A DNA stretch of 64,000 bases from a virus. Taxonomy: Duplodnaviria; Caudoviricetes. Positions 2,439 through 52,776 of this stretch are shown here, piece after piece (position 1 is the stretch's first letter; every line of letters begins with the position of its first letter). Under the pieces are notes generated by a model, which was not told the DNA's origin, made no database searches, and saw only the letters and a list, made by a program, of their open reading frames with translations. The DNA is taken from positions 731 to 64,730 of the IMG/VR virus record IMGVR_UViG_3300030101_003968; one strand, written 5' to 3'. The position numbers were made by a program, and so were the translations under genes.

Positions 2439-4118
2439 ATGCCTATACGAGTAATAAAATCACCAAATAGAGGATCTGAAGCGGTCCAACGGATGCTAGA
2501 TAGTGGGAACTTTAAGCTTGGTCCCAACGGAGAGCTTCTTAGGGTGAGTGCAGAGGAGGCAAATCAGGCAGCATTGCAGCAATCGAGAGAGGCAGCCTAC
2601 CCCGAGAAGTATTCCCCAACTACATCTGGGTTCATGACTCCCGAAAGAAAGGAGTATTTAGAGAATGTAGATAGGCGGCTCACACCAGAAGAGGCAAGAG
2701 AGTATGCAACGGTGTCTTTTGACCCATCTGAAGGACCAAACATGGTGTTCGGTGCGGTGGCGGGTGAAGCACCTATGGAGCCCGTGGCCCTTCTTGCTGG
2801 CCAAGCAATAAAAAGAGCAGGTGATGCTTACAGGGTTTTGAAGACTCCAGTAGAAAATATGGGGGTCGGTCTGGCATCTGCAGAGCCAAGCAGAGTTGGC
2901 ACACTTAAAAAGTCGGGATATAAGGGGCCTAAAATCAACACGGGCTTTATTCCTTCCAGGAAGCCTCCTGAAGATATTTTTTCTCCAGCTGTTGTTAGCA
3001 AGCACACTCCTCGGGAGGGGCTTGTGGTAGATGAAGTCGCAAGTGAGGGAAACGAGTTCGTAAGAAGATACTTTGCTGACCCTCAGGTTCAAGATCACTA
3101 CAGAAAAACTCTCATTGGGTCTAACCCTACTGCTTCTCAAATGCAAGACGCAATAAACTTGGACTATGAGGATGCCGCTATGATATCCAAAAAGCAGCTT
3201 TTTGACCTTGATTACGATGTAGAAGAATCAAACAAAATATATCGCAACGCACTTCATCCAGACTTCAATGAGGAAAGGTATGCTCAAACCCTTATTGAAG
3301 ACAATGATGCAACCAAGCTTGAGGCCCTTTTTCTGAGGGGACAAAGAGCTCCAGACACAACCCTTGATTTTGATGGCTCCCTTGTTGGTGACGCTGCTGC
3401 TGGAATGTATAGACCGCTTCAAGAAAGCGTTGCAATAAACCCTAAGTTTAGGGGAGATAAATCCACTGCTGCGCATGAAGCTCAGCATTTTGTTGACGCA
3501 AACTTCTTAAGGTCAGATTCTGACATTGCAAAAAAGGTTTCGTCAGGTATATCTGAAAGCGTTAATCCTAAGCTTCAGCAATATGTAAAAGACGGGTCTG
3601 GACGAGATGCGCTAAGCAGGTCCGAACTTTATCTTGCAAGCACCCCAGAGATTACAGCTCGAACACGCGAGCTGCAAAGATCGGTAGCAGAAATTCTTCT
3701 TAATAACCCGTCCAACAATCCAAACATAAAAGCCCTAAGTCAAGAGGATAGGGTTGCTTTTCTTTTAGGTGATTTTTCAAAGCTAGACGAGTCATCCATA
3801 ATGAATGTGTTCAGACAGGCTTTTCAGGACAACTTATCGAAAGGAAAGATTGGAATTGTAAACATGTTTAATGATGTCTTGAAGGGCGGTAAGGCTGTTG
3901 ATTTTTCTTACTCTGGCAACAGACCCATCAGCCAAATGAATATCAACAATGAGAAAAAAGAAGCTATTTCTAACTTGTTTAAGTATTCTCTTGCGGCATC
4001 AGGCGCAGGGGTAGCTTATGGCGCTATGGACCCTGATCAACAACCGCCTCAAGGAATGTCTTTCGGGGGAAAGATGAGGGTCAACAAGACTCAACCAATG
4101 AAAGTAATGAAGCGATGA
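2439..4118 (+). CDS. putative virion/internal protein with zincin-like HExxH motif
   Basis: 559 aa; AAHEAQHFVD followed by YLASTPEITAR; C-terminal MSFGGKM motif. Confidence 0.6.
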   Translation: MPIRVIKSPNRGSEAVQRMLDSGNFKLGPNGELLRVSAEEANQAALQQSREAAYPEKYSPTTSGFMTPERKEYLENVDRRLTPEEAREYATVSFDPSEGPNMVFGAVAGEAPMEPVALLAGQAIKRAGDAYRVLKTPVENMGVGLASAEPSRVGTLKKSGYKGPKINTGFIPSRKPPEDIFSPAVVSKHTPREGLVVDEVASEGNEFVRRYFADPQVQDHYRKTLIGSNPTASQMQDAINLDYEDAAMISKKQLFDLDYDVEESNKIYRNALHPDFNEERYAQTLIEDNDATKLEALFLRGQRAPDTTLDFDGSLVGDAAAGMYRPLQESVAINPKFRGDKSTAAHEAQHFVDANFLRSDSDIAKKVSSGISESVNPKLQQYVKDGSGRDALSRSELYLASTPEITARTRELQRSVAEILLNNPSNNPNIKALSQEDRVAFLLGDFSKLDESSIMNVFRQAFQDNLSKGKIGIVNMFNDVLKGGKAVDFSYSGNRPISQMNINNEKKEAISNLFKYSLAASGAGVAYGAMDPDQQPPQGMSFGGKMRVNKTQPMKVMKR

Positions 4119-4780
4119 TTACAAGAACACGCCGCCCACAGGGGTATCAGGTAAGAAAAACAAGGGTTCAAGACCCTATGTCATACTTTGCACAGAACGG
4201 GTTCAAGAACTCTCCTCAAGGAGACCCCCCGAAAGGCAAAATTGTAGCCCTTGGGCCGAACGGGGAGGTCATGTACGTGGATGACCCCGAAACATACATC
4301 CACCCTGAAGTGGATTACAGCGGTCAGTTCGTAGATTCTGCCTCAGAAAGGATTGCGCGGCAGATGTTTATGGAGAGTGGCGGTGAAAAGAACCCTGACA
4401 CTGCGGTGTCGCCAGCGGGTGCGCGGGGAAGGTGGCAGATTATGCCAGGAACTCAAGCGGATCTGGAGCAAAGGGGACTGATTCCTAAAGGTCTTGACCC
4501 ATTTAACCCTCAGCACAGCAAGCAAATGCGTGATGCCAAAATAGGTGCGCTCATGGAGCTTGATATGATCTCCAATAGAGATATTCCTGAGGAGAACAAG
4601 TTGGCAAGAATTTATGCCTCTTATAATTACGGTGAGGGTAACGTAAGAAAGTTCCTCAACAGGATGAGAGAACAGGGTGTTGACATTGAGGGAGACCCCA
4701 GGGAATGGATACAGTATCTCCCAAAAGAAACTAGGGATTACATCAACTACATCGAGTACGGGATAGACAAACCTAGGTAA
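4115..4780 (+). CDS. lytic transglycosylase (SLT domain)
   Basis: MESGG...AVSPAGARGRWQIMPGT...ASYNYGEGNV...LPKETRDYI. Confidence 0.85.
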   Translation: MITRTRRPQGYQVRKTRVQDPMSYFAQNGFKNSPQGDPPKGKIVALGPNGEVMYVDDPETYIHPEVDYSGQFVDSASERIARQMFMESGGEKNPDTAVSPAGARGRWQIMPGTQADLEQRGLIPKGLDPFNPQHSKQMRDAKIGALMELDMISNRDIPEENKLARIYASYNYGEGNVRKFLNRMREQGVDIEGDPREWIQYLPKETRDYINYIEYGIDKPR

Positions 4781-11332: not shown

Positions 11333-11406
11333 GCGCCTGTAGCTCAGCTGGATAGAGCATCTGCCTTCTAAGCAGACGGTCACAGGTTCGAATCCTGTCA
11401 GGCGTA
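11333..11406 (+). tRNA. tRNA-Arg (TCT)
   Basis: GCGCCTG-TAGCTCAGCTGGATAGAGC-A-TCTGC-CTTCTAA-GCAGA-CGGTC-ACAGG-TTCGAAT-CCTGT-CAGGCGT-A canonical cloverleaf. Confidence 0.95.
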
Positions 11407-11413
11407 CAATTAA

Positions 11414-38883: not shown

Positions 38884-41800
38884 ATGCCACTACGTTCAGG
38901 ATTTAGCTCGCCTCAGTCTGAGGTACAATCAATAATTGAAGACTACAGAAATCAGGGACTGCCAGACGAACAGCTTGAAAAAAGACTTTCGGAGGAGTTT
39001 GCCCCTGAGATGTGGGAACCGATTCTTCACCCCAAAGAAGAACCGAAGGATGACCTTGAGTCAAGACTCGTGTCTCAAATAGGGGAGAAGCCTGAACAGC
39101 CGTCGTTTCCTCAGGATATATACGACGAGTTTCAATATGACTTTAGGAACCCGCTGATTAAGCCATTGCCTCCGAAAGGAGGCTTTGTCACGACTGACGG
39201 TACGTACAACAAAAGTCTTGAGGCATATAACTCTCAGGCTGAAAAAAGAAACTTTAGAGCTAAGAAGCAGTCCGCTGTGTTTGAGCTCTACAACAATCAG
39301 GTAGATGAGTACAACTACAATGCTCAGGCCTGGAATGACGCAGCAGAGGATATTCTTGAGGACGAAAACAGGGAGTTTTACGAGTCCACAATCAAAATAG
39401 ACAAGTCTCTTGCTGCAATCACGCAGCTTCCAGAGAGGGTAAACCCCTACAGCTGGAAGTCAGCACTGGGGGAACAGCGCAATACAGGAAAGTTTTCTCC
39501 GCTGGACTTTGGCACACATATCTTCGCACAAAAGACTGATACTGACATTCATAACGAAATGCTCAGGGACGAAGGCTATTTAAGCGCCATGAAGAATCCC
39601 ATGGACGAAAGCTTCAACCTCGGATCGTCTGACTATCCTGTTCTTGTAAGCGGATCACCTGACGACGTTATGTCTCAGGTCAAGATGATTTACGACGAAC
39701 GAAACGACAAAAACTTTGCAAGTGACCCCGCTTTTGTGGCTGCCCTTAAAGAGAAGATGAAAAGAAAGGATTCGTACCGATCCGCATACATGAAAGAGTG
39801 GTTTTCTAAGTACGCTAAGGAGAACGTCTTTGACCTAAAGAATATGACCCCAGAGGAGATGGCTCAGGCAGAGCAAGACATCTTTGACGACACTGGGCTT
39901 TACATCAATCTTGACGGCAACAACACTGTTGGAGCCGCAAAGGAAGGCGACTTCTGGACCAACATGAGCGCGGCCACAATGAGGTTGAGAGCTACTGGCA
40001 ACAACGTCATGTTTGTGGCCAATGCCATGGGTAAGGCTCTTGACTTTGTGATGAGTGAAGACACCAAGAGTTACGAGCGCTATGACATTAGATTAGATGA
40101 GCTTAGGGATAGAAAAAATGAGCTCGAAAGGGCTGCCGAGGAGATAAGTCAGGGCATGACCAGATACTACATGACTCGCACCGAGGCTATGTTGGCTGGA
40201 GACGACTTGTCTTTGGACATAGACGATGTGGAGCAGGCAAGCATAATTACTGTCCTTAAGGGCTTTGTTGGTCTTGAAGATTCTTTCTCTAAAATGGAGA
40301 GGTTGGAGGCCCTTCAAAGCCTCCCTCAGTCTCAAACTGGGAACCTTATCGGTATGTTATTTGCTCTTGCAACCAGAGGTAAGGGCTCCAAGGCGGCTAA
40401 GGGAGTTACAGGACTTTTTAACTTTTTTGCAAAAACGTCACTGGGCGCCTCGGTGCCCATGGCAACCATGGTGGGTGCAGACAAGTTTGCAGAGATTTAC
40501 GACGATCCTTTCTTTTCAACCTTTACCGACTCCGAAGGACTTGAGGTGTCACCTATTGCTGCCCAGAGAATGCTTGAAGAGGCACAGTTATTTGGAAACT
40601 CAAACGCCACCTTTGAAAGCCTTGGGCTGACAAGAAATAGAAACGACGCTGCCATCCTTGGCTACACCACCGTTCACGCTGGAGGTGAAGCTGCAGGAGA
40701 GCTTGCTGGTGGTCTTTTATTCAAGGGATTTGGCAAGTACGCTACTGGCACACCCCTTGACAGAGCAGCAAAGAAAAGAATCGGTCAATACCTTGTGGGG
40801 ATGTTCTCCGCTGTGGGCATTAGCATGCCTGAAGAGTACCTCGAAGAAGCCATAACTGAGGCTATTCAGTACTCTGCAGAGCTTGGATTTGAGGACAGAG
40901 AGTTCAACATGGATGAGTTTGTTTCTCGGGTTCGCAAGGCTGGTCTGAGCGGGTTTACTATGGCTCCATTGATGGGGACAGCGACATCTGTTGTTGGGAC
41001 CGCAATGCAGGAGCGTCAGATACAGCAAATGAGTCCAGAGGAGTTCAACCTGTATCAGCTTCGATTTGCGTACAACAGTGAGTACGACAGGCTTGACAAG
41101 ACCGCTAGGGACATCATTGAGATGGAGCAGACTAGGGACGCATCTAACGACCCCTCGTTTGTTCAGCACATGAACGAGGAGATTGCTCAAAAAAGAAAAA
41201 CGCTCAAAAAGAATCAAAAGGCAAGGATGGATAAGGCCTTTGCTTTGCTCGAAAAGGATGCTCCTCTTGCAAACAAAATCATGCTGTCTGGTCAAAAGAT
41301 TTCTGGCCTTGCCAGCATGGTCAAGGAAGAAACCAATGAAGATATAAAGAAGATATACGAAGAGGAGCTAGAAAAGGCCATCGGAGAAAGAGCTCAGCTT
41401 GACGACGCAGTAGCCGAGGCTCTTAGGGAGCAGCGCACTATTGTTGTAAAAGACAGAGATGGAAACGACGTAAAAACATCGTTTACCGAGCGATCAGCCA
41501 CTACGGAGGAGAAGAGGGAGATGGAGGGTCTGAGCTCAGCCCAAAGGCCAAACGCAGAGGACGCTGCAGCACAAGACGAGCTCGACGAAGAGTTTGACCT
41601 TGATTACGATGCTGGTATGGAGGACGATCAAATCGTCATGCTTTCTGGCATGGACGGGGTCACCATGGAGCAGGGTAGCATTGACGAGTCCAAGATGCAG
41701 AAGGGGGTCATGGACTTCCTGAGAATGGTAGCCCCAGACCTAGCAAGCGAAGATCTCACTATCATCACTTACGGAAGTCAAAAGGCATACGAGGCTGATC

Positions 41801-44800
41801 CAGACATTGCTAGAGCAATGAGCAGGGACGGAGCGTCTCCACGCGCATACGCCGCAAGAAACGAAGAGGGCAAGATTACTAGAATTATAGTTGACCCAAG
41901 ATCTACAATCGGAGACGCCCAACACGAGGTGGGACACGTCGTCCTGAGAACCGTTTATGACAACCCTGTTCAAAGAACTGCTCTTGTTGAGAAGATTCTT
42001 GACATGGCCAACATAAAGGGCAACGAAACATTCAGGGCTTGGGTCAACTCCACCATTGACCTTTACAACTCGAACAGAGAACAGCTGGGCAAGGATGATG
42101 TGGCTCAGGAGGAGCTTATCCAAAACTTCTTCCAAGCATACGTATCTGGAGAGTGGAATGTATTCAATGACGCTGGGAAGCAAATAGAAGTTAAAAAGAA
42201 GGTTAGAGATAGAATCGCCGAAGGCTTTTGGGACTTCTTGGCTATTCGCAACCCATCTGTCAGGAGCCTTAACATCAAGGACACCGACGGACTTATTGCT
42301 GTTGCGAAGAAGTTTCAGCGTTTTGTTTCTGATCAGCCAAACTTTTCTCCGACTACAGAAAAAGTCGCAAGCCCAATGGAGCGGATGGGCAAGATGGTTG
42401 CGGCCCCAGAGCAGGAGCGCCCTGAGCCAAAGAAAGAAAAGCTTGACCCCGCCTCTCTTTTCAAAGAAAAACCAGCAGAACCTGCTGAAGAAGCACCAGC
42501 ATCCGAAGAGGCTAAGCCACAGGATGACCTTACTGAAACAGCAGTACCGACTCCAGTCATGGGACCGCGTCAGGACACTGAGTCTGAGGCTGATTACAGG
42601 GCAAGGTTGCAGAGGGAGGCAGATGAGATGCTAAAGGGCACGGAGGGCATCGAAACATCTGCAGAGGACGCGCTGTCTCAAGAGACAGAGGGCCTCAGAT
42701 CAAAGCAAAGAGGCAAAGACTTTGTAGCAGGAAAAACCATTAAGGCGGTTTACCTTAGAAACTACGACGCAAGAGTCTTTGAGCTGAAGGCAAAGGATTA
42801 CGGTCACTACAGAAACTGGGTCGCAAAAATTACTGGAAACGGATCGCAGCCATTTGATCGCATTTCATATCAGAAAGAAGACGGTTCTTTTGCTGATCTT
42901 CGCGCACCAAAGCCTGTTTACAACAGGGATGGAACCCTTAGGCAGATGAGACCAGTGGACATCAGAACCTTTAAAATGAGGTTTATAGAGTCTCGCAATG
43001 CTATTCTGCAAGCAAGAACCGATGCTAAGGTGTCCAACACGAAAAGACTCACAAGACTTAGAGATCTCGCAAGAGAAAATAACATCAATCTTGACGAGTA
43101 CTTTGATTACAACTACGGCAACTACACGCTGTCTAACCTTGAGTACGCCGAGGTGCAGATTCTTTCAAGGATTTCAGAAGAGCCAGGAACCACACACGAC
43201 ATTGGGATTATTGGCCCCAATCTCGATGCCACTGGAAGAATAAGCTCCAGAGACCCACTTCCAAAAGACCTTGAGATTTACAACAAGGGAAGGGAGCTTG
43301 GATACAGATCCAAGAGAAGGAAGGTAGAGGGAGTTGGTACGCACACTACCTCCTTTAGCGAAAGAAGCGCTATAGAGCAGGGTGTTTTAACCAGAGTTAA
43401 AAACATTGATGAGTTTAGAAGTGAGCTAACAAGGCTTACTGGCGACGGAAGCATTTTTGCGATGATCGCAAAGTACGCCCCTACGTCATACGGCACAGCC
43501 ACGTTTGAGGTTGGAGGAAAAAAGGTTAAGGTCCCTGTAAAGAGCGGTGTTTACACTCCTGTTGTAGACTACTTCGATTTTATGAAAAAGAACGGCAGAG
43601 CACCATCTCCTTCTGAGATTAGCGCAATCACCAATACCAACAGCGGAAAGCAGTCGGAAGTGTTTGACGCCATCAAGGAGAGGGCTATGAGGTTTGCCGA
43701 CAACGACAAGCAATCAGTCATCTTCATCAAAAACCTTGGCGCAGAAAATCCCGCAGGAGATCCAGGAATCTTTGAGGCAGCATTTAAGATTATTGATGCA
43801 GCCATAGAGAGCTCGTCTAACCCAGGCGTAGCCGTGGAAATGGTTGTTGATTCCATCAACAAAATCATGGCGAAGACTTACAAGTCAAAGCTAAGCATCG
43901 GTGGCGGTGAAAAAATTGCCATAGACAAGGAAAACGGCAGAACACTGTTCCAAAGACTTTCAGATAAAGAGATCAAGGGTAGCGGTCTTTACGATCAGGA
44001 CGGATCCCTCAGGCTCAACAGAGCGGAGCCTGAACTTGCGTACAAAAACTTTAAGAAGTTTTTCGTTGATCAAAAGTCAAACAAGATTGGCTTTGAAATA
44101 AGAAAGCCGCTTCTTCTTAAGCTGCTGAATAGCAAGCACTTAGGAAGCACAGAAAGCAAGGAGTACTTGACCCTTCCTTCGTCCAAAGAATTTTTGGATC
44201 TCGTTAGCTCAGAAGAGCACCTCAACACAAGCTCTGCTACGGGCGATATCATTGGCGCAGTAATTGTTGACAATGCTGCCGCAAAGCTCAAGACTGAGGA
44301 CCCGTCTACGGGTAAACCCTACCTATATGGTGTAACTGGATTTAAGGGGCTTGTCATGTTTGATGAGTTTGCTACAGAAGCAAAGGTTCAGGAGATGATG
44401 ATTGCCAGAAACCCAGAAAGATACACTGGTGGTATTGGCGCTCAGGCTTCAGGGCTCGCGGGGCTTATGTCCAAGCGCAGGGCTGGACGCATCTACCACC
44501 ATGGCGCAGGTCAGTGGGAAAAGTCCACCAGCAACATGTTTGGAAACGCCCTTTCTGCTATTGCACTGAAGTTTCAGGACAAGTACTTTGATGTCATCAT
44601 GCTTCAGAGCGATGTAGAAAACTACAAGAAGCAAAGAGTAGAGGCTGGGCAAGACTTTGACCTTGCGCTCGACCTCATGTACGGAAAGACAAGAGATAAC
44701 CTTGAGTCCCTTGAAACTACCTTGGACATGATTAAGGATCTGATGGCTCAGTCTGAGATTACATCAGATCAACTTTCGGACTACCTCTACGCTAAGCATG

Positions 44801-47289
44801 CACCAGAAAGAAACGCATACGTAGCCTCTAAGAACCCAGACAACAAGGCTGGTTCGGGTCAGAGTGACGTATGGGCAGCTCAGACGGTAAGAGAGCTAGA
44901 GACTCCTGAGATGAAGCGCGTAGCTGGACTTGTTTACTCGATTATCGACAACACGAGAAAGACCATGGTCAAGTTTGGTCTGGAAACTCAGGAAACAATC
45001 GACGCATGGCAGGATTTGTTCGGGAACTACGTTCCACTCGCAGGGCTTGCCACTGATGAAATGGATGAAAACAACATCGCCTACCCAACAGGCGGTGCTG
45101 GTATGGGGGTTTATGGCACTACCCAGAAGAAAATCAAGGGACGTAAGAGCGAGGTAAAGGCAAACATCGTGGCTCAGGTCGTGATGCAAAACGCCATGGT
45201 CATTCAGACCGCAAGGAAGAACGAGGCCATGATGCACCTGTACCGACTCATCAAGGAGAACCCCAATGCAAACGTCTGGGGCATCAATACGTCTACTTTC
45301 CCTCTCACTAGGTTGAATGAACAGGGGCAACAGGAAGGCATGTCTGTTGCAGAAATGAAACAGAACCCTCACACCGTTCCAATCAGGGTAAATGGCAAGA
45401 CAGAGTTCTTGTACTTCAAGGACAAAAACTATGCTAACACCCTTAACGGCATGACCGTTGAGAGGGCATCTATCTTCACGAGAGGCCTCAACTCCATGAC
45501 TGGCTTCATGCGAAACATGCTTACGGTGTATGACCCTAACTTCATGATCAGCAACTACGCTCGCGACATTCAGGCAGCCGCCTACAACGCGATGGCAGAG
45601 GCTGAGATGGATGGTGGATACATACAAGGTGTTAGCCACGCTAAGTTCGCAAAGGACCTTATGTCCAACATGTATCTTTCTACTAGTCAGTTGTTTAAGA
45701 ACGCCGCCTTTGGCATCGAAATGGACGCTGAAATCCAGGGGTATATGGCGGAGTGGTCAGCAGATGGAGGTAAGACTGGATGGGGGTATACCAAGTCCCT
45801 TAACGATATCACTGCTGAGCTTGAGCAAGCTTCTAAGTTTTCGGGAGATTCCGCGTCAAGGGAGTTTGACATCATCATGGGTACGCCTAGGAGGTTTGCC
45901 AACTACATCGAAGGCATTAACGAGGCATTCGAGGCCTCTACTAGACTTGCATCTTACATCGCTGCAAGGCAGAACGGAATCAGTAGAGAAAGAGCTGCAC
46001 AGCTTTCAAAGAATGTCACCGTAAACTTCAATAGAAGCGGAGAGTGGCAGTTCTTGAACAGCGTGTATCTATTCTTCAATGCCGCCATGCAGGGTAACTA
46101 CAGGTTCCTAAGATCCATGACGTACCTGAAGGACGTGCGGAAAGAAAATGGTGAGCTTGAGTCTTGGCACAAAAGAGTTTCTGTACCGCAGAAAATCGCG
46201 TTTGCCATCAGCTCATTCAGCGGCCTCGTGGCTACTCTCAACATTGCAATGAGTGGCACCGATCCCGACGACGGAGAGTTGTGGTACAACAAGATTCCAG
46301 ACTACCACAAGGAAAGAAACCTGATCTTCATGCACAGGGACGGGAAGAACTACAGCATGATCCCCCTACCATACGGGTACAACATTTTCAACAACCTTGG
46401 AACCGTGCTTGCTGAAACATCTACAGGAAATAGAGAGTTTTGGGATGGTGCTATGTTCCTCGGAATGTCTGGCTTTAGTGCTTTCTCTCCGATTGGATTC
46501 GGTCAGAGCAAGAACTTTGCAACATACCTTGGCAAGGCTGCAGCCCCCACGCTCGTCAAGCCATTGGTGGAGATTGCGGCAAACGAAACCTACTTCGGAT
46601 CTCAAGTTTATCAGGAGCGCCTTCCGTTCTCAACAACTCCCTATTCCCAGCTGGCTTTCCAATCGCCAGAGCAAGTTCAAGAGTTCTTCCAGTGGATGAA
46701 CGAAGCTACAGGCGGCAGCAAGTACAAGTCGGGATCACTTGATATGAATCCAGATCAGCTCTGGTACCTATACGAGTACTACATCGGCAGCGCGGGAAGG
46801 TTTGTGGGCAACACAGGAGAGCTTGCAACGAACATGTACGAGATGTCAAAAAACTCCTACAGACTCGCTGCTGAGCAAGGAATGAGCTACGATGCGTTTA
46901 AGAAAATGACAGCTGGATTCCAGGGCAAAAACAGAATTAGAATGCGCCCCAGTCAAATACCGATTATTAGAAAGGTATACGGGGAGCCATCTAGATACTT
47001 TGATAGCGACAAGTACAAGGAAAACACCTTTGAAATACAACAGCTCAAAAAAGAACTTGATAAGGAGCCAATCTACACTCCAGGAAGATACCGAGGTGTT
47101 CAGGAACTTCACAAGTTATTTAAGGAGACCAACAAGACCCTTAAGACAATTAGAGCTCAAAGAAGGCTGGCTAAGGACATAAAGGACAGAACGGAAAAAA
47201 TTAACAGGCTTTACGAGCTTGATGAGAGACAAAGAAGAGTAATGACCATTTACAACAGAAAACATGAAGAACTCAGAGGACAAGATTAA
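38884..47289 (+). CDS. giant polyvalent ejection protein with C-terminal LPD38-like domain and zincin-like HEVGH motif
   Basis: 2801 aa; KNVTVNFNRSG...YLFFNAAMQG...IPLPYGYN...PLVEIAANETYFG; TATATTTG box 4 nt before ATG. Confidence 0.75.
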   Translation: MPLRSGFSSPQSEVQSIIEDYRNQGLPDEQLEKRLSEEFAPEMWEPILHPKEEPKDDLESRLVSQIGEKPEQPSFPQDIYDEFQYDFRNPLIKPLPPKGGFVTTDGTYNKSLEAYNSQAEKRNFRAKKQSAVFELYNNQVDEYNYNAQAWNDAAEDILEDENREFYESTIKIDKSLAAITQLPERVNPYSWKSALGEQRNTGKFSPLDFGTHIFAQKTDTDIHNEMLRDEGYLSAMKNPMDESFNLGSSDYPVLVSGSPDDVMSQVKMIYDERNDKNFASDPAFVAALKEKMKRKDSYRSAYMKEWFSKYAKENVFDLKNMTPEEMAQAEQDIFDDTGLYINLDGNNTVGAAKEGDFWTNMSAATMRLRATGNNVMFVANAMGKALDFVMSEDTKSYERYDIRLDELRDRKNELERAAEEISQGMTRYYMTRTEAMLAGDDLSLDIDDVEQASIITVLKGFVGLEDSFSKMERLEALQSLPQSQTGNLIGMLFALATRGKGSKAAKGVTGLFNFFAKTSLGASVPMATMVGADKFAEIYDDPFFSTFTDSEGLEVSPIAAQRMLEEAQLFGNSNATFESLGLTRNRNDAAILGYTTVHAGGEAAGELAGGLLFKGFGKYATGTPLDRAAKKRIGQYLVGMFSAVGISMPEEYLEEAITEAIQYSAELGFEDREFNMDEFVSRVRKAGLSGFTMAPLMGTATSVVGTAMQERQIQQMSPEEFNLYQLRFAYNSEYDRLDKTARDIIEMEQTRDASNDPSFVQHMNEEIAQKRKTLKKNQKARMDKAFALLEKDAPLANKIMLSGQKISGLASMVKEETNEDIKKIYEEELEKAIGERAQLDDAVAEALREQRTIVVKDRDGNDVKTSFTERSATTEEKREMEGLSSAQRPNAEDAAAQDELDEEFDLDYDAGMEDDQIVMLSGMDGVTMEQGSIDESKMQKGVMDFLRMVAPDLASEDLTIITYGSQKAYEADPDIARAMSRDGASPRAYAARNEEGKITRIIVDPRSTIGDAQHEVGHVVLRTVYDNPVQRTALVEKILDMANIKGNETFRAWVNSTIDLYNSNREQLGKDDVAQEELIQNFFQAYVSGEWNVFNDAGKQIEVKKKVRDRIAEGFWDFLAIRNPSVRSLNIKDTDGLIAVAKKFQRFVSDQPNFSPTTEKVASPMERMGKMVAAPEQERPEPKKEKLDPASLFKEKPAEPAEEAPASEEAKPQDDLTETAVPTPVMGPRQDTESEADYRARLQREADEMLKGTEGIETSAEDALSQETEGLRSKQRGKDFVAGKTIKAVYLRNYDARVFELKAKDYGHYRNWVAKITGNGSQPFDRISYQKEDGSFADLRAPKPVYNRDGTLRQMRPVDIRTFKMRFIESRNAILQARTDAKVSNTKRLTRLRDLARENNINLDEYFDYNYGNYTLSNLEYAEVQILSRISEEPGTTHDIGIIGPNLDATGRISSRDPLPKDLEIYNKGRELGYRSKRRKVEGVGTHTTSFSERSAIEQGVLTRVKNIDEFRSELTRLTGDGSIFAMIAKYAPTSYGTATFEVGGKKVKVPVKSGVYTPVVDYFDFMKKNGRAPSPSEISAITNTNSGKQSEVFDAIKERAMRFADNDKQSVIFIKNLGAENPAGDPGIFEAAFKIIDAAIESSSNPGVAVEMVVDSINKIMAKTYKSKLSIGGGEKIAIDKENGRTLFQRLSDKEIKGSGLYDQDGSLRLNRAEPELAYKNFKKFFVDQKSNKIGFEIRKPLLLKLLNSKHLGSTESKEYLTLPSSKEFLDLVSSEEHLNTSSATGDIIGAVIVDNAAAKLKTEDPSTGKPYLYGVTGFKGLVMFDEFATEAKVQEMMIARNPERYTGGIGAQASGLAGLMSKRRAGRIYHHGAGQWEKSTSNMFGNALSAIALKFQDKYFDVIMLQSDVENYKKQRVEAGQDFDLALDLMYGKTRDNLESLETTLDMIKDLMAQSEITSDQLSDYLYAKHAPERNAYVASKNPDNKAGSGQSDVWAAQTVRELETPEMKRVAGLVYSIIDNTRKTMVKFGLETQETIDAWQDLFGNYVPLAGLATDEMDENNIAYPTGGAGMGVYGTTQKKIKGRKSEVKANIVAQVVMQNAMVIQTARKNEAMMHLYRLIKENPNANVWGINTSTFPLTRLNEQGQQEGMSVAEMKQNPHTVPIRVNGKTEFLYFKDKNYANTLNGMTVERASIFTRGLNSMTGFMRNMLTVYDPNFMISNYARDIQAAAYNAMAEAEMDGGYIQGVSHAKFAKDLMSNMYLSTSQLFKNAAFGIEMDAEIQGYMAEWSADGGKTGWGYTKSLNDITAELEQASKFSGDSASREFDIIMGTPRRFANYIEGINEAFEASTRLASYIAARQNGISRERAAQLSKNVTVNFNRSGEWQFLNSVYLFFNAAMQGNYRFLRSMTYLKDVRKENGELESWHKRVSVPQKIAFAISSFSGLVATLNIAMSGTDPDDGELWYNKIPDYHKERNLIFMHRDGKNYSMIPLPYGYNIFNNLGTVLAETSTGNREFWDGAMFLGMSGFSAFSPIGFGQSKNFATYLGKAAAPTLVKPLVEIAANETYFGSQVYQERLPFSTTPYSQLAFQSPEQVQEFFQWMNEATGGSKYKSGSLDMNPDQLWYLYEYYIGSAGRFVGNTGELATNMYEMSKNSYRLAAEQGMSYDAFKKMTAGFQGKNRIRMRPSQIPIIRKVYGEPSRYFDSDKYKENTFEIQQLKKELDKEPIYTPGRYRGVQELHKLFKETNKTLKTIRAQRRLAKDIKDRTEKINRLYELDERQRRVMTIYNRKHEELRGQD

Positions 47290-47704
47290 AAACACCAAGC
47301 TAGGGGCTTGGCTAAAGGGCAAAGCTCCCAAAGTGCTTGACGTGGTAGGCGACCTGCTCCCAGATCAAGGCGCACTCGGCGTAGTAAAAAACCTGCTGGA
47401 CAAGGAGCCAGGTGTAGACCCTGCAGAGGCTCAGGCCATGGTGGATGCAGAGGTAAAGTTTCAGGAGAACGTAACGGAGCGATGGAAGGCTGACATGGGT
47501 AGTGACGTAAAGCTCGCTAAGCTGATCAGACCAGTAACTTTGATTGCTCTTATGACCATGTTTATGGTCACCATGGTTGCAGACAGCATGGATGACTGGC
47601 CATTTAACGTAAAAGATAGTTACGTATCTTTACTTGAGATACTTATGCTCACCGCCTTTGGTGCGTATTTCGCAGGAAGAACCATTGAAAAAGCCAAAAA
47701 ATAA
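47264..47704 (+). CDS. holin (GTA 3TM-like)
   Basis: RWKADM.SD..L.K.IRP, two TM helices, AYFAGRTIEK. Confidence 0.75.
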   Translation: MKNSEDKIKNTKLGAWLKGKAPKVLDVVGDLLPDQGALGVVKNLLDKEPGVDPAEAQAMVDAEVKFQENVTERWKADMGSDVKLAKLIRPVTLIALMTMFMVTMVADSMDDWPFNVKDSYVSLLEILMLTAFGAYFAGRTIEKAKK

Positions 47705-47705
47705 C

Positions 47706-47837
47706 ATGGAAGAGGACTTCGACGACATCAGCTTTTTGGATCAAGACAAGCTCAAGAAGCAAGAAAAGAAGATTGAAGACGGTGATATCACCTGCAACAT
47801 CGACAACCCAGAGGATTGCGAGTCATGCAGCGGATAA
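47706..47837 (+). CDS. 43-aa acidic peptide ending CNIDNPEDCESCSG
   Basis: ATG 47706 within track ORF 47634..47837; terminal CxxC. Confidence 0.65.
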   Translation: MEEDFDDISFLDQDKLKKQEKKIEDGDITCNIDNPEDCESCSG

Positions 47838-49888
47838 TATCGTTGTTGTTTTTTTTGCCCCTGTTGGCTGCAGCACAGCCCAGCTGGGTAAGAGTTGAGT
47901 TTCAGAGTGACGCCTACGGAGAGGAAAGCAGCTGGAACATATATCCAGTTGGCTCCGATGAGTCTGTGGCCTCTGGGGGCCCATACGCTGATTCAACGTA
48001 CTTCCAACAAACAATCCCGCTTCCATCTGGTGAGTACAACATGGTTGTTGACGACGCCTTTGGGGACGGGATTTGTTGTGGGTTTGGAGAAGGATGGTTC
48101 AAGCTGAACAATGACTGCGAGCTTGATATCGCTGTTTTTGACTTTGACACAGCTCAGATAACAGTTCCGTTTACCCTTACCCCGTGTGAGCTGCCAATGC
48201 CTGGTTGTATGGACGAGTCGTCCAACAACTACAACCCATGGGCCACCGTAGACAACGGAACATGTAACGTCAGCGAGTGTCCTGAGGGTCAGGCATTTGT
48301 GTCTATGGAGCTTACACTAGACAACTGGCCTAACGAAACTGGATTTACATTGGTGGACCTTGCTGTCGGTCAGTTCTACGAGCAGGTGCTTCCAGGGGGT
48401 TTTAACTTTGGAGATCAATTAGCCACCTACACTTACGACTTCTGCGTTGCACTTGGCTTCGAGCTTATTCTGACAGACACATACGGAGACGGTCTCAATG
48501 GTTCTGCAAGCGGAGGTCAAGATGGAGGAGTGGTCATCACTGCATGCGACGAAGAGGTTGTCTGGGAGCTGGAAGATCTATCCTACTCAGACAACGACGG
48601 AAACGTTCACTACTCAGGTGCCGTGTTTGTAGAGCCGTGCGCCATCGAAGAGCCCGTAGTGGGCTGCATGGACGACGATTACGTTGACTACAACCCAGAA
48701 GCTACAGAAGCAGGGGACTGCCTCACCCTACACAACTGGGGGTGCATGGACCCAGGATCATTTAATTACGACTCAACCGCCACAATTTCAGACCTCAACA
48801 GCCCGTGCGTCACGACCATAAGAATCGGTGATGCAGCAGGAGATGGATGGGGCAATTCACACATAGGTGTAAAGCAGGGGGACCTGCAGTGGATCTTTAC
48901 CATGGGGCCTGGAGAGTTTTCTCAGTCCTGGGACCTGATCCTTGACTCAGACGAAAAGGTAGACGTGTACTACTTTGAGGTTGGAGGACCACAGCAACCG
49001 CCTCAAGAGACTGAGTTTCAAACACTTCACAACTCCATCCTTGTTACAAACGAGCTTGGAGACACGCTGATGGTGGAGGGTCTTAACCCGTTCTTTGACA
49101 ATGGTCAGGGGGCGCTTCAGCCTTTCAAGAACCCAGAGTGGAACGTATACAGCTTTATGCCCTACTGCGGTACAAGCTGCATTCCGTTTATGTACGGATG
49201 CACTGACGACACCGCACAGAACTACGATGACGAAGCTAATACAGAGGATGGGAGCTGTTACTACAATGCTGGATGCACGCAGGCTGGATACGTCGAGTAC
49301 TACAATCAGGGATACGAAGCGGACTATGACGACGGCAGCTGCGAGACGCTCGCTGTATTTGGGTGCATGGACTCCGAAGCCCTTAACTACGATTCAGAAG
49401 CAAACGTAGATACGGGAGACTGCATTGAAGTTGTACTTGACTGCATGGACCCTAACGCATTTAATTACAATGAGTTAGCTAACGTTTCTAATGAAGAAGC
49501 ATGCCTGTATGATGCGGGCTGCATTACAGGTCCAGGACAACCATATTGGGCCAACGACTACTGCTACTCGTGGGTGATCGAGGTTGACCCATACTGCTGC
49601 GAAACAGCGTGGGATGCGGTGTGTGCAGAGATGTACAACTACTGTGGCGCTGGAGTGACGTCAGTGGAAATGGCTGTAAGGTCATTGCTTCAATTTTTTC
49701 CAAATCCAACATCAGGGTTGGTAAACATTCAGGCACCCGTGGGCACTCTAATAACCTTGTTTGACGCAAGGGGTAGGGTTGTTGAAACAACCACAGGCAA
49801 CACAGTTGAGCTGCCATCTCCAGGACCGTATGTAATCATGGCCAACTACAAGGGTAGAATCAAGAGAGAAACAATCGTAAGACAATGA
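47825..49888 (+). CDS. secreted Cys-rich repeat protein with T9SS type A C-terminal sorting domain
   Basis: Signal peptide ending LLAAA|Q; multiple GC[MT]D...NY repeats; D..GDG domains; C-terminal FFPNPTSGLVNI...LFDARGR...GPYVI. Confidence 0.8.
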   Translation: MQRIISLLFFLPLLAAAQPSWVRVEFQSDAYGEESSWNIYPVGSDESVASGGPYADSTYFQQTIPLPSGEYNMVVDDAFGDGICCGFGEGWFKLNNDCELDIAVFDFDTAQITVPFTLTPCELPMPGCMDESSNNYNPWATVDNGTCNVSECPEGQAFVSMELTLDNWPNETGFTLVDLAVGQFYEQVLPGGFNFGDQLATYTYDFCVALGFELILTDTYGDGLNGSASGGQDGGVVITACDEEVVWELEDLSYSDNDGNVHYSGAVFVEPCAIEEPVVGCMDDDYVDYNPEATEAGDCLTLHNWGCMDPGSFNYDSTATISDLNSPCVTTIRIGDAAGDGWGNSHIGVKQGDLQWIFTMGPGEFSQSWDLILDSDEKVDVYYFEVGGPQQPPQETEFQTLHNSILVTNELGDTLMVEGLNPFFDNGQGALQPFKNPEWNVYSFMPYCGTSCIPFMYGCTDDTAQNYDDEANTEDGSCYYNAGCTQAGYVEYYNQGYEADYDDGSCETLAVFGCMDSEALNYDSEANVDTGDCIEVVLDCMDPNAFNYNELANVSNEEACLYDAGCITGPGQPYWANDYCYSWVIEVDPYCCETAWDAVCAEMYNYCGAGVTSVEMAVRSLLQFFPNPTSGLVNIQAPVGTLITLFDARGRVVETTTGNTVELPSPGPYVIMANYKGRIKRETIVRQ

Positions 49889-50931
49889 AGAAACTTGTAG
49901 CCATCGCCTTTATGCTTTTGCCCTTGCTCGCGCTTGGGCAAAGTGACTTTTACAAGAATGTGTTGAGAAGAGCTACGTTCTACGCAGCCGTGAACGGAGG
50001 CAACTCCGTATCAGATCAGGATGTGTTTTCTGTGGCGACAGGACCGCTTACTACAGACATTGTTGAGACGCCGTTTGACTATTCTCTGACTATTGGAGTT
50101 AGAAAGATAGCAAGGTTTGGATATGAGAACAGAGCCAACATCTTTTACGACGGAACAGAAAAGACATACGGTGACGCAGCAACGGTAGGTAAGTACGATG
50201 GCTTTGAGTTCTTGGCCGAGGCTGACTGGAGAAGGCAGCAGGGCAAGAACTTTCTCGATCAAGACTACTTTGCTAGGTACGTAGCTGACAGCTGGGTTGT
50301 GAAGGCAGAATACCTGCAAGACGGCTTTGCTGACGTTAGATACTTTGAGGCCTCAGAGCGGGGAAGATTGAAGATCGGTAAGAAGCTTTCTCTGAACGCA
50401 GGTGTTGTGCAGAGAATATCTGAGCCCTACGGGTACGACCCGCTTCAGCAATGGCTTCTGGACAACAATCAGATACACTACACCGCTTTGGCTTTGGAGC
50501 AGGGGTATAGCGTGGATGTAAACACAGGAGAGTTCTTCTCTCCAGACGGCACCATGGTTGCAAACGACCAAGCGGTATGGGAGCAAGTGGTCATCCCACA
50601 AGTTCTAGATGAGTATGTATCTAAGAAAAGATCTGAGCTTGAAAGCCAGTGGCTGTACTCAGCGGTTATTGGATTTGACTTCTACCACTACGAAAAAAAC
50701 TTTTGGTTGCACTCCTGGGGCAATGTAATGCCCTATCACCTTGACACAGGCGACGAGTACTCGTATCACAACTTCGTGAACAGCAGCCAGTGGGTTGACC
50801 TGGGCTTTGGCCTGGTGTTTGGAACCAAGCTTACAAAGAGCCTCGGCGTGTTTGCTGAGGGCAAATACAACAGATACTGGAACAGAGAGTGGCACGATTT
50901 CTCTGTAGGACTCAACTACATACTACTGTAA
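49885..50931 (+). CDS. putative outer-membrane beta-barrel protein
   Basis: Signal peptide ending LALG|Q; alternating aromatic strands; C-terminal FSVGLNYILL. Confidence 0.65.
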   Translation: MKKLVAIAFMLLPLLALGQSDFYKNVLRRATFYAAVNGGNSVSDQDVFSVATGPLTTDIVETPFDYSLTIGVRKIARFGYENRANIFYDGTEKTYGDAATVGKYDGFEFLAEADWRRQQGKNFLDQDYFARYVADSWVVKAEYLQDGFADVRYFEASERGRLKIGKKLSLNAGVVQRISEPYGYDPLQQWLLDNNQIHYTALALEQGYSVDVNTGEFFSPDGTMVANDQAVWEQVVIPQVLDEYVSKKRSELESQWLYSAVIGFDFYHYEKNFWLHSWGNVMPYHLDTGDEYSYHNFVNSSQWVDLGFGLVFGTKLTKSLGVFAEGKYNRYWNREWHDFSVGLNYILL

Positions 50932-51215
50932 TGGCACAACAAATTGGAGAAGATACTAAGGTAACGCTGGATCTCAAGACGCTTGGGATGGTGGCAGCAG
51001 GGATAGGCACAGTTGTGGCTATGTGGTTTGCGTTGCAAGCGGACATCGCAGAAGCAAAAGAATTGCCGCTTCCTGCTGAACCAGAGATTACGCGCATGGA
51101 GTTCGACATGAAAGACCAGCTAGTTCGTCAAACGATTATGACTACTCAAGAAGATGTAACTGAAATCAAGCAAGATATCAAGCGCATTGAAGAGAAAATA
51201 GATCAACTAAAATGA
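50931..51215 (+). CDS. single-TM coiled-coil protein (MAQQIGEDTKVTLDLK...)
   Basis: TAATG overlap with upstream gene; TM segment followed by coil. Confidence 0.7.
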   Translation: MAQQIGEDTKVTLDLKTLGMVAAGIGTVVAMWFALQADIAEAKELPLPAEPEITRMEFDMKDQLVRQTIMTTQEDVTEIKQDIKRIEEKIDQLK

Positions 51216-51218
51216 CAC

Positions 51219-51584
51219 ATGAAACTCATATCAACCCTATATGTCTGCTGTGCATTGTTACTGGCGGCAGCTTTTGTAACGCCTGCAGAGGATAAAGAAC
51301 TGTGCGGATCAGGAATCTGCGTGGTAGAGTTCAACGCAAGTTTTAACTCACAAAACAGTGTCCCATGGATCGAGAAACTTGACGACTGCGAAACTGCCCG
51401 TGTGGACATCGCTACTGCTCCAGAGCTTCAGAAGAAGCACAAGATTGTTGTCGTCCCGACCATTGTTGTTTTCAAAGAGGGAGAGGAGCAGGAGAGGTTT
51501 CAAGCGAACATCATGATGACGATGGATGCGACCATTGAAGAAGTTCAAGAGGCCGTAGACGACATCATGCTAAACGACTTTTAA
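51219..51584 (+). CDS. exported thioredoxin-fold protein lacking CxxC
   Basis: Signal peptide; VVEFNASFN...VDI...PEL..K..I.VVPTIVVF..G.E.ERF. Confidence 0.7.
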   Translation: MKLISTLYVCCALLLAAAFVTPAEDKELCGSGICVVEFNASFNSQNSVPWIEKLDDCETARVDIATAPELQKKHKIVVVPTIVVFKEGEEQERFQANIMMTMDATIEEVQEAVDDIMLNDF

Positions 51585-51823
51585 ACCCACGTCACTTTGA
51601 TCGTGAGGGCCATGTCCTTTAAGTCGTAGAACTCCGACCTTACCATCTGCTCAATGATTGGGTACAGGTAAACGTGAGCCACTTCTTCCTCGCTTGTCTC
51701 TGTAAATATGCGCTGAAAGCCGTTTTCGTTTATTCCCGCGTCAACGTGGATGAACTTAAAGTCCTTTGACACTACGGCTTTTACTATCTGGTGATACTGC
51801 TTTTCGGGGCGATAATCATCCAT
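51581..51823 (-). CDS. hypothetical protein
   Basis: 80-aa ORF convergent with the thioredoxin-like gene. Confidence 0.55.
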   Translation of the reverse strand: MDDYRPEKQYHQIVKAVVSKDFKFIHVDAGINENGFQRIFTETSEEEVAHVYLYPIIEQMVRSEFYDLKDMALTIKVTWV

Positions 51824-51825
51824 GC

Positions 51826-51987
51826 TTAGACTATTGGAGGCTGTTGAGACAGCATTTCTAAAAAGTCAACCATGTCAATGATGCCGTTGCCGTTAAAGTC
51901 CAGCGCAGCTGCTTGACTCCCAGGAGCGGGACATGAACCATACGCCTGAAGAAGGAGAAGAAAATCCATTATGTAAGTTGACCACAT
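51826..51987 (-). CDS. 53-aa dockerin/EF-hand-like peptide
   Basis: Read manually: MWSTYIMDFLLLLQAYGSCPAPGSQAAALDFNGNGIIDMVDFLEMLSQQPPIV. Confidence 0.6.
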   Translation of the reverse strand: MWSTYIMDFLLLLQAYGSCPAPGSQAAALDFNGNGIIDMVDFLEMLSQQPPIV

Positions 51988-52017
51988 ACCTTTGGTACGT
52001 TATCTAATTACAAATGG

Positions 52018-52278
52018 TTACGGGTTGGCTACTTGCACTCTAAGCACAAAAACTCCAGGCGTATCGGTGTCCATAAGGGTGTATTGCATGCCCATGTAAT
52101 CGTAGTAAGTCATACCGATTAAAAGCTCGTGCTGAAAGTGCTTAACTGGATGACTACCATCCCAAATCGTGGGGATAATTAGATCGCAGTTGTAGCGCTC
52201 TGGGTGAATGTAGAGGTTCTTGGGGGCTGTGCTGCATCCAGCAGCAAGCAGCGCCAACATTGCTAGTGTTGTTCTCAT
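52018..52278 (-). CDS. putative lipoprotein
   Basis: MRTTLAMLALLAAG|C lipobox. Confidence 0.65.
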   Translation of the reverse strand: MRTTLAMLALLAAGCSTAPKNLYIHPERYNCDLIIPTIWDGSHPVKHFQHELLIGMTYYDYMGMQYTLMDTDTPGVFVLRVQVANP

Positions 52279-52389
52279 GAGGCTAAACTACCTCGACCCC
52301 AATCAACAACCAAGAGAAACCTGTATAATGATGATTATGTTGCAATAATCACAAGCTCAATATGTCTTATATTTGTAAAAAACACAAAG

Positions 52390-52776
52390 ATGCCAGGGCA
52401 TTACAAAAAAAATGTATTTCCCTTGTTTATGGACGACAGGGAGCCAGTTCAGGTCATTGACTCTGCTGGTACAGACAAAGAATGGAACAAGAGAACAAGC
52501 AGGGTTCTCATCAACCCTTCCCCAGCAGGAGCTGTAAAGATCAAGCTCGGCAAGCCAGAGACTCCTGGGATCATGGTCGAGGTCGGTAAGGACACTGGAA
52601 ACTTCTCTTGCATCGTAGTCCTTGGGGATTCTACTGATCCATACGGACCATTTAACAATGACGCTGACTTCAGAGAGGTCCAGCTTCAGTACGCGGGAAG
52701 CACTGAAGCCTCTGTGTTCACATGCTTCTGGAACGGAGAGAACTGGGTTCCGATTGGCTTAACTGCAACTGTGTAA
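52390..52776 (+). CDS. hypothetical protein, paralog of 22423..22791
   Basis: KKNVFP N-terminus, FWNGENW C-terminus; TATATTTG box at 52368-52375. Confidence 0.65.
   Translation: MPGHYKKNVFPLFMDDREPVQVIDSAGTDKEWNKRTSRVLINPSPAGAVKIKLGKPETPGIMVEVGKDTGNFSCIVVLGDSTDPYGPFNNDADFREVQLQYAGSTEASVFTCFWNGENWVPIGLTATV

Follow-up and report, generated by a model that had tools for sequence, protein, structure and literature searches.

A four-gene cassette at the end of the late operon of a tailed phage was analyzed in a DNA stretch of 64,000 nucleotides (the window). The window is the 64,730-base IMG/VR virus record IMGVR_UViG_3300030101_003968 without its first 730 bases, and the record is rated complete by CheckV. 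The cassette encodes a secreted Cys-rich protein (g1), a predicted outer-membrane beta-barrel (g2), a predicted single-transmembrane (TM) helical protein (g3), and an exported thioredoxin-fold protein (g4). The preferred interpretation, which is given about an even chance of being right, is that the segment combines a variable surface protein exported by the host's type IX secretion system (T9SS) with a separate phage-specific envelope module (g2, g3 and g4, here called the trio) that is tied to lysis and is possibly a spanin analogue. For the T9SS part, the analysis gives a new and well-supported case of an idea already in print. The trio is an envelope module that is restricted to phages and so far undescribed.

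The sequence-only reading of the window had proposed that g1 is a cargo of the T9SS with a type-A C-terminal domain (CTD), and this proposal was confirmed at several levels. The whole g1 protein stayed under the cut-offs of both sorting-domain models, with 20.3 bits for TIGR04183 (cut-off 23) and 18.4 bits for PF18962 (cut-off 27). When the last 110 residues of g1 were searched alone, TIGR04183 was matched with 24.2 bits, above the 23-bit cut-off. The C-termini of all 81 non-identical homologues from viral contigs also matched TIGR04183 (81/81, E <= 0.01, best 1.3e-15). A profile of 46 full-length g1 homologues reached the solved CTDs in the PDB solely via its C-terminal end, and the matches were 7pzj (E 4.2e-8), 8glk_D (E 3.1e-6), and 8glj_D (E 6.3e-4). 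In the AlphaFold2 model of g1 (mean predicted local distance difference test score, pLDDT, 74.8), residues 623-690 superimposed best on the RgpB CTD with a Z score of 10.2 and a root-mean-square deviation (rmsd) of 1.6 A over 65 aligned residues. The same part of the model also fits the CTDs of RemA, NucA, and FspA as bound in the Flavobacterium T9SS translocon (Z 8.1-8.6), and the translocon entries 8gl6 and 8gl8 are among the matches of this fold search. The CTD is regarded as genuine because the hidden Markov model, the profile-versus-PDB comparison, and the fold matches agree, and g1 is thus a well-supported phage-encoded T9SS type-A cargo by sequence and fold. Only the type-A model was matched by g1, and no type-B family was found among the matches.

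The other features that had been described for g1 were likewise verified. The protein contains 30 Cys; the strict GC[MT]D..NY pattern occurs four times, and six Cys-bounded loops of 20-23 residues are recognized by a looser pattern. The DPYCC module covers residues 586-603, and the FPNPT motif of the terminal domain lies at residue 628. The signal peptide with its Gln was seen by inspection, and the model places a helix at residues 2-19 in the signal region. An alternative TTG start at position 47816 gives 690 residues, and the Atlas sequence begins at the ATG form. Upstream of the CTD, the model shows three beta-sandwich domains (about residues 22-121, 160-270, and 331-447) and small disulfide loops. 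Fold searches with the whole model returned generic multi-beta-sandwich matches only, such as ferlin C2 arrays, FN3, and adhesins. Residues 22-123 gave a weak match to a Ca-dependent carbohydrate-binding module (2xhh, Z 6.8), and the Atlas search with g1 gave no usable name. The earlier wording "adhesin-like" is reasonable for a protein with this model, and g1 looks like a binding protein, not an enzyme. Within 50,697 cultured or deposited phage records, g1 matched one marine virus record, by a 62-residue Cys-loop stretch only.

The second protein, g2, models as an outer-membrane barrel of the 12-strand type. Its AlphaFold2 model (pLDDT 70; predicted template modelling score 0.66) contains about 12 long strands, into which an alpha/beta region is inserted. 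The matches listed by Foldseek and VIA-align were all outer-membrane barrels, and Foldseek gave 127 PDB matches at E <= 0.001. The best folds were Tsx (Z 13.6, rmsd 3.6, 188 aligned), EstA (13.2), KdgM (12.9), NanC (12.7), and NalP (12.6), and the FadL-type chains scored lower (3dwo, Z 7.1). T9SS barrels are absent among the fold matches listed, an absence that proves nothing. The signal of g2 is of the signal peptidase I type, with G/A then Gln and no Cys, and Gln stands at +1 in 26/26 sequences. No Pfam, NCBIfam, or PHROG family was found for g2. PorP/SprF and PorV were tried as candidates and rejected, with no match to g2 at E <= 1 in Pfam and NCBIfam, and none in 21 distant members of the g2 family at E <= 0.01. 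The barrel of these distant members was explained by no Pfam family in 21/21 cases; in P0090, an FGE-sulfatase domain unrelated to the barrel is present at the N-terminus.

The g2 family comprises 407 representatives (50% identity clusters) at E <= 1e-3 among 1.84 billion. Its members sit on phage-sized contigs, and the nearest Atlas clusters are all viral (30/30). In the 50,697 cultured or deposited phage records, no tblastn or blastn match was found for g2 or for g3-g4. Scans of viral contigs with two distant barrels (P0052 and P0057) gave nothing confirmable.

The third protein, g3, begins with a short N-terminal segment; by inspection, its hydrophobic stretch covers residues 20-35, and the remainder is a helical tail of about 57 residues with many charges. 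One TM helix with N-in/C-out topology is predicted. Searches of the family libraries with g3 gave weak coiled-coil-type matches only. This small protein is the best-conserved member of the locus, with 63-96% identity in the relatives of the same lineage and 55% in the most divergent row.

The fourth protein, g4, had been read as an exported thioredoxin-like protein and as a folding helper. The fold was verified: Thioredoxin PF00085 was approached with 23.1 bits (cut-off 23.5), and a profile of the g4 family, searched with a limit of E <= 0.1, matched 82 thioredoxin sequences in the PDB (best E 5.5e-6). The CGPC of 2vim falls on a gap in the g4 profile, and no CxxC is present among the conserved columns of 38 sequences. 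Two Cys, C34 and C57, are conserved, and there is no conserved lipobox. Because the CxxC site is deleted, g4 as predicted cannot act as a usual thiol-disulfide oxidoreductase, and the folding-helper part of the claim was not supported. A complex prediction with g2 (residues 20-348), g4 (28-121), and g3 (36-94) scored 0.01 (mark 0.32); this is no answer and evidence neither way.

The distribution of the four genes was determined in three lineages. For the first lineage, to which the window belongs, 157 IMG/VR loci were recovered via g2 and g1, giving 97 versions after identical g2 DNA was collapsed. Of these, 70 deduplicated loci had sufficient flanking DNA to the left and right. The full set of four genes occurs in 70/70 of them, in the order g1-g2-g3-g4 in 62 and g2-g3-g4-g1 in 8; a lack of co-occurrence in other phages had been named as refuting the sequence-only reading. 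In near relatives, g1 identity ranges from 41% to 94% while g2 holds 93-97%, and the 41% is reached where g2 is still 93% identical. The C-terminal 110 residues of g1 are 85-93% identical where the remaining g1 is swapped. Two loci (L088 and L091) hold a second, unrelated CTD cargo inserted before g2 (PF18962, 28.1 and 28.5 bits), and two CTD open reading frames (ORFs) occur in 4/70 loci. By these comparisons, g1 is the variable and exchangeable member of the locus.

For the second lineage, a barrel sharing about 30% identity with g2 served as the query and gave 80 loci, 78 of them with profile hits. Its gene order is g2, 0.5-3.7 kb of variable genes, g3, and g4, and the g3-to-g4 spacing is -31 to +6 nucleotides in 65/65 loci. 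The CTD profile matched nothing in the 78 loci; the same profile had found the unrelated second cargo in the first lineage. A small secreted Cys-rich protein (L226:7017-7694 and homologues) follows g2 in this lineage. It is composed of a low-density-lipoprotein-receptor-class-A-like DGW.DC.D.SDE motif, variable acidic Thr/Ile/Tyr-rich repeats, and a short conserved tail. As a remnant CTD carrier it was rejected, with 0/6 matching the CTD in Pfam or NCBIfam and no other family match. In one locus (L183:7047-7751, +), a GH16 glycoside hydrolase (58.4 bits, cut-off 22) lies between the barrel and the small Cys-rich protein.

The barrel of the third lineage is 25% identical to g2 over its full length (E 3e-26). 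A long form of g3 (223-237 residues) stands directly before this barrel, and its TM region is homologous to g3 (hhalign probability 96.8%, E 3e-10). Neither g1 nor g4 was found within the flanks of these loci. The long g3 (L165:6300-6998 and homologues) has, ahead of the TM region, an additional soluble N-terminal domain of some 75 residues with a twice-repeated helix-turn-like motif, and a periplasmic coiled coil of about 120 residues ending in GGRF. Since g2 and g3 occur without a detectable CTD cargo in two lineages, the T9SS cargo is, on gene content, an add-on to a conserved core formed by the inner-membrane helix protein and the barrel, usually with the dead thioredoxin. The proposal of the sequence-only reading that g2 is a dedicated partner of g1 and that g4 assists it was therefore not sustained: the third lineage has g2-g3 without g1 and g4, the second has g2-g3-g4 without a detected CTD, and g2 matches no T9SS barrel family.

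A search of 185,579 species genomes (one per species) placed the g2 family on only six contigs of metagenome-assembled genomes (MAGs). These contigs are 3.8-120 kb long and sit in bins with unrelated labels. Five hold the phage cassette and one holds a fragment only, and extra orders such as g3-g4-g1-g2 are seen among them. An origin of the cassette in a host chromosome was rejected, and the six MAG contigs are read as binned viral contigs. A chimeric host insertion, which had been named as a possible source of the segment, was checked and rejected: the Atlas rows are virus-only, and five of the six MAG copies carry the phage cassette.

We infer the link of the trio to lysis from its genomic context. 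The description of four tightly coupled genes after a holin agrees with the ORFs and their junctions in the window. From the holin to g4, the start and stop codons overlap or nearly abut, and this string ends the + strand operon (Table 1). The match of the holin to phrog_3427 covers residues 26-146 and positions 17-137 of the 141 in the profile. In 26/70 loci of the first lineage, a homologue of the holin is found no more than 4 kb upstream of the cassette. In a rearranged sub-lineage, an M15-like gene directly follows g1 in L099, L103, and L106, and directly follows g4 in L108. In the second lineage, a Peptidase_M15_3 gene stands directly after g4 (63.4, 43.8, and 59.6 bits, cut-off 23.2), often with the holin behind it. 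When the 57 second-lineage loci with at least 1.5 kb after g4 were counted, M15 directly followed g4 in 24, a holin lay within 1.5 kb after g4 in 20, both were present in 16, and neither in 18. The trio points to lysis because it adjoins a holin and/or an M15 endolysin gene in several arrangements, and chance can hardly account for such neighbours in at least four gene orders.

In the preferred interpretation, g1 would be exported by the Sec pathway, would fold and form its disulfide bonds in the periplasm, and would pass through the host T9SS by its type-A CTD. It would end at the surface of the infected flavobacterial cell or be released from it, and it presumably binds a target. The cargo and the trio would be expressed with the holin as the tail of the late operon. 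The barrel g2 would lie in the outer membrane, g3 would have its anchor in the inner membrane and its tail on the periplasmic side, and g4 would be a redox-dead periplasmic protein. With these predicted topologies and the presumed contacts among its proteins, the trio would cover all three envelope layers, and its genes travel with the holin and endolysin genes. It may act at the last step of lysis, where it would disrupt the outer membrane or detach it, which is the role of spanins in other phages.

Several observations weigh against a role in lysis. Neither a holin nor M15 was found in the fetched flanks of 35/70 loci of the first lineage, the corresponding number in the second lineage is the 18/57 given above, and no lysis gene was recognized near the g2-g3 pair of the third lineage. 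In the second lineage, g4 was not matched in 13/78 loci, 6 of which have at least 3 kb of downstream DNA. The periplasmic tail of g3, with its roughly 57 residues, is short for spanning the periplasm. A barrel also needs assembly by the host beta-barrel assembly machinery (BAM), which is slow for a lysis effector. In the first and second lineages, g2 always adjoins a secreted Cys-rich protein, which fits surface display too. Furthermore, a position in the late operon alone can put unrelated genes beside lysis genes.

The comparison with spanins gives both likenesses and differences. No canonical spanin pair was found in the window by the lipobox scan, and the sole lipobox ORF (52018-52278, -) has no partner. 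Canonical spanins are missing in 91/677 phages of a published survey whose available text gives the lipobox lipoprotein as the defining feature of the o-spanin (Kongari 2018, PMC6139136), and a spanin is annotated in only some of the flavobacterial phage isolates covered by the available part of another report (PMC8776804). Similar to lambda Rz/Rz1 and T4 PseT.3/PseT.2 as presented there (PMC6139136), the trio genes are adjacent or overlapping and lie beside holin and endolysin genes. Similar to the two-component spanins in that account, g3 is a predicted N-in/C-out inner-membrane helical protein with a partner in the outer membrane. However, the outer-membrane partner g2 is an integral barrel instead of a lipoprotein, with no lipobox in g2 or g4, which also counts against the spanin analogy. 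A third component, the dead thioredoxin, is present, the g3 tail is much shorter than Rz, and there is no sequence similarity to the spanins so described. The trio is not filed as a spanin because it has no lipoprotein, adds a third protein, and has a short g3 tail; it is proposed, with the chances about equally balanced, to work like one.

A stronger form of this proposal is less likely than not. It states that g2-g3-g4 forms a new class of lysis machinery with which Bacteroidota phages disrupt the outer membrane, with the T9SS cargo acting together with the trio from the cell surface. In such a machinery, an integral barrel would replace the lipoprotein as the base of a complex through three layers, with the dead thioredoxin as a periplasmic adaptor. 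The cargo may loosen or mark the surface layer at lysis, or it may keep the progeny off the debris.

The four genes could also form a dedicated surface-display system, in which g2 anchors g1, g4 chaperones the 15-disulfide cargo, and g3 tethers or regulates. This explanation is unlikely, and the same holds for its proposed aims of surface remodelling, aggregation, or grazer avoidance. It is favoured by the constant association of the four genes in the 70 first-lineage loci, by the secreted Cys-rich protein that always adjoins g2 in two lineages, by the slot before g2 that can hold two CTD cargos, and by the preserved 110-residue C-terminus of g1 where the g1 body is swapped. The T9SS barrels PorV and PorP/SprF shuttle or anchor CTD cargo in the outer membrane, and g2 is similar to them as an outer-membrane barrel encoded beside a CTD cargo. 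However, a type-A cargo uses the host PorV and needs no private barrel. The tail of g1 is type-A, unlike the type-B tail of the partners of PorP/SprF-like proteins. The best fold matches of g2 are 12-strand barrels (such as Tsx, KdgM, and NanC) and autotransporter barrels, and g2 matched neither the PorV nor the PorP/SprF family at E <= 1. Display is further opposed by g4 without CxxC, by the g2-g3 pair without g1 and g4 in the third lineage, and by the second lineage without a detectable CTD protein.

Another role that was considered, the exclusion of superinfecting phages or the masking of receptors, is distinctly unlikely. Here g2 and g1 in the host outer membrane would keep competing phages from adsorbing or passing their DNA in, or would prevent progeny from adhering to debris, and g3 and g4 would be accessory. 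Phage-encoded barrels are common in viral protein sets, where BFVD rows are named porin, autotransporter, or outer-membrane protein (OMP), and the cyanophage OMP-like barrel family PF24653 is among the nearest named Atlas clusters of g2. Roles in superinfection or competition are proposed for phage T9SS cargo in the available text of Bellas 2020 (PMC7468147). The fast change of g1 within the locus agrees with such a role. On the other hand, exclusion genes are usually expressed early or in lysogeny. The genes of the cassette end the late operon and are coupled to the holin, PHROG scans revealed no integrase in the annotated parts of the genome, and this role would not explain why g3 is so strongly conserved and so tightly coupled to g4.

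That the trio performs another envelope task, such as late anchoring or assembly, and adjoins lysis genes through shared late timing only is given little chance: the third-lineage pair does have tail, portal, and further virion genes around it and no recognized lysis gene nearby, and many loci lack a holin or M15 in the fetched flanks, but the holin/M15 adjacency in at least four gene orders is poorly explained by chance or timing.

The claim that no such phage system had been described was wrong in part. It did not stand for the T9SS cargo, for which two reports exist in the literature (PMC7468147 and PMC6949934); for the trio, no describing paper was found. The barrel/helix/thioredoxin set was not found in the literature on T9SS, crAss-like phages, spanins, Flavobacterium phages, and phage barrels, with subscription journals mostly outside this search. 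Similar to g1, the "Cryophage" cargos (Bellas 2020, Nat Commun, PMC7468147) are phage genes with a terminal type-A sorting domain, are strongly variable, and are presumed there to hijack the host system. These cargos, as far as the available text presents them, are an endoglucanase, a GH39 protein, and a PA14 protein in metagenomic islands (PMC7468147). Unlike them, g1 is Cys-rich, has no enzyme domain, is coupled to a holin, and is linked to an envelope trio. The gut crAss-like contigs (de Jonge 2019, Viruses, PMC6949934) are also similar in that ORFs of Bacteroidota phages carry T9SS sorting domains, with the function left open in that report. They differ as gut phages with BACON-repeat proteins near head genes, and no trio or lysis context is described in the available part of that article (PMC6949934).

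The trio proteins have individual counterparts elsewhere. As a phage gene for a host outer-membrane barrel, g2 is similar to PF24653 Phage_OMP of cyanophages and to the porin and OMP rows of BFVD. Lambda Lom is another phage-encoded outer-membrane barrel. Barrels of the Phage_OMP and BFVD type stand alone, without a conserved inner-membrane and periplasmic partner, and g2 gave no match to such a family. In the F-type TraF/TrbC-like periplasmic proteins, the thioredoxin fold serves for structure or binding and not for redox catalysis. As an exported thioredoxin fold without CxxC, g4 is similar to them, with weak matches (TrbC_Ftype 15.8 bits, cut-off 24.2); unlike these proteins, g4 is found in a phage lysis region and not in conjugation.

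Marine flavobacteria turn over much of the carbon of algal blooms, and their phages are abundant. To our knowledge, how flavobacterial phages breach the outer membrane is poorly understood. The trio could fill this gap, as a phage-only and widespread module that would span three envelope layers beside lysis genes. If this is true, the trio enlarges the known range of machineries that disrupt membranes by a new kind. Separately, a T9SS cargo that is tied into the lysis operon would indicate routine phage use of a host secretion system in lytic infection. Both ideas are testable by ordinary genetics in Flavobacterium johnsoniae.

Table 1 Coordinates in the window of the coupled string from the holin to g4, of the g1 subfeatures, and of the lysin candidate.
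Feature	Position	Strand	Remarks
Candidate endolysin or virion lysin	4115..4780	+	Pfam SLT 33.2 bits (cut-off 21.3); PHROG endolysin / lytic tail protein matches
Holin, 146 residues, first gene of the coupled string	47264..47704	+	phrog_3427, E 2.1e-22
Acidic ORF, 43 residues	47706..47837	+	Starts 1 nucleotide past the holin stop; 13-nucleotide overlap with the g1 start
g1, secreted Cys-rich multi-beta-sandwich protein with CTD	47825..49888	+	687 residues from ATG
g1 Sec-type signal peptide	47825..47875	+	By inspection: hydrophobic core, AAA, then Q (residue 21)
g1 type-A CTD	49694..49885	+	Residues ~627-690 (TTG numbering); profile and fold matches
g2, predicted signal-bearing outer-membrane beta-barrel, 348 residues	49885..50931	+	ATGA overlap with g1
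g3, predicted single-TM helical protein, 94 residues	50931..51215	+	TAATG overlap with g2
g4, exported thioredoxin-fold protein without CxxC, 121 residues	51219..51584	+	3-nucleotide gap after g3

The setting of the cassette is that of a tailed phage genome. PHROG scans of the window revealed a late operon on the + strand, with terminase, portal, and virion proteins, and replication genes on the - strand beyond 53.5 kb. The large terminase matched 87 phage records, each with less than 60% identity; by name, these are Flavobacterium (68), Cellulophaga (15), Tenacibaculum (2), Maribacter (1), and other Caudoviricetes (1). The host is very probably a marine member of Flavobacteriia because the relatives of the terminase are Flavobacteriia phages, and the Bacteroidota-type host assumed in the sequence-only reading is in line with this result. 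GC content is 0.47-0.50 across the cassette, without contrast to the neighbouring DNA. The SLT-domain protein at 4115-4780 is the one lysin candidate of the window and lies far from the holin. Two giant late proteins of 2088 and 2801 residues are encoded at 29300-35566 and 38884-47289 (+), and in the larger protein the C-terminal 900 residues gave matches to PHROGs without a known function (phrog_14770, E 1e-159). A tRNA-Arg (TCT) at 11333-11407 (+) is located directly 5' of the large terminase gene.

Scans for promoters and terminators over 46800-52600 stayed at or below the shuffle expectation. In one metatranscriptome run (X20), contigs of relatives with 90-92% identity cover 47264-48588, from the holin to the g1 N-terminus, and 49769-51194, comprising the end of g1, g2, and part of g3. 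These contigs give neither strand nor level, DNA carry-over is possible, and the uncovered parts carry no meaning.

Additional small ORFs are present in and around the cassette. The acidic ORF between the holin and g1, absent from the sequence-only reading, is very acidic and has a CxxC-like end. No family was assigned to it in Pfam, NCBIfam, or PHROG, and fewer than half of the related loci gave tblastn matches (52-90% identity). In some relatives, g2 is separated from g3, or g3 from g4, by runs of small ORFs with very basic low-complexity sequences that are rich in Lys, Arg, Gly, and Met (L040:7035-8365, L095-L106), with no family match. Another small ORF of 49-62 residues recurs at varying positions in and around the cassette (L040:5771-5959, L183:11180-11359, L098:5855-6004, and many others). 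It has an MK.NWINSW-like start, an FRFMILNFGFE-like end, and often a CPCPxC insert, and sometimes adjoins a nuclease of 118-137 residues (phrog_452, E 2.7e-37). This recurring ORF looks like a mobile mini-element.

Two ORFs on the - strand lie downstream of g4. The ORF of 86 residues at 52018-52278 converges on the cassette and has a classic lipoprotein signal (lipobox LAAGC). It is conserved in the nearest relatives only, with 44-71% identity, and may be an exclusion-type or outer-membrane lipoprotein. As a unimolecular spanin it was ruled out, with no C-terminal TM segment. The ORF of 53 residues at 51826-51987 contains a dockerin-type calcium-binding motif, with 20.5 bits for Dockerin_1, below the cut-off of 22.9, and it is kept in near relatives.

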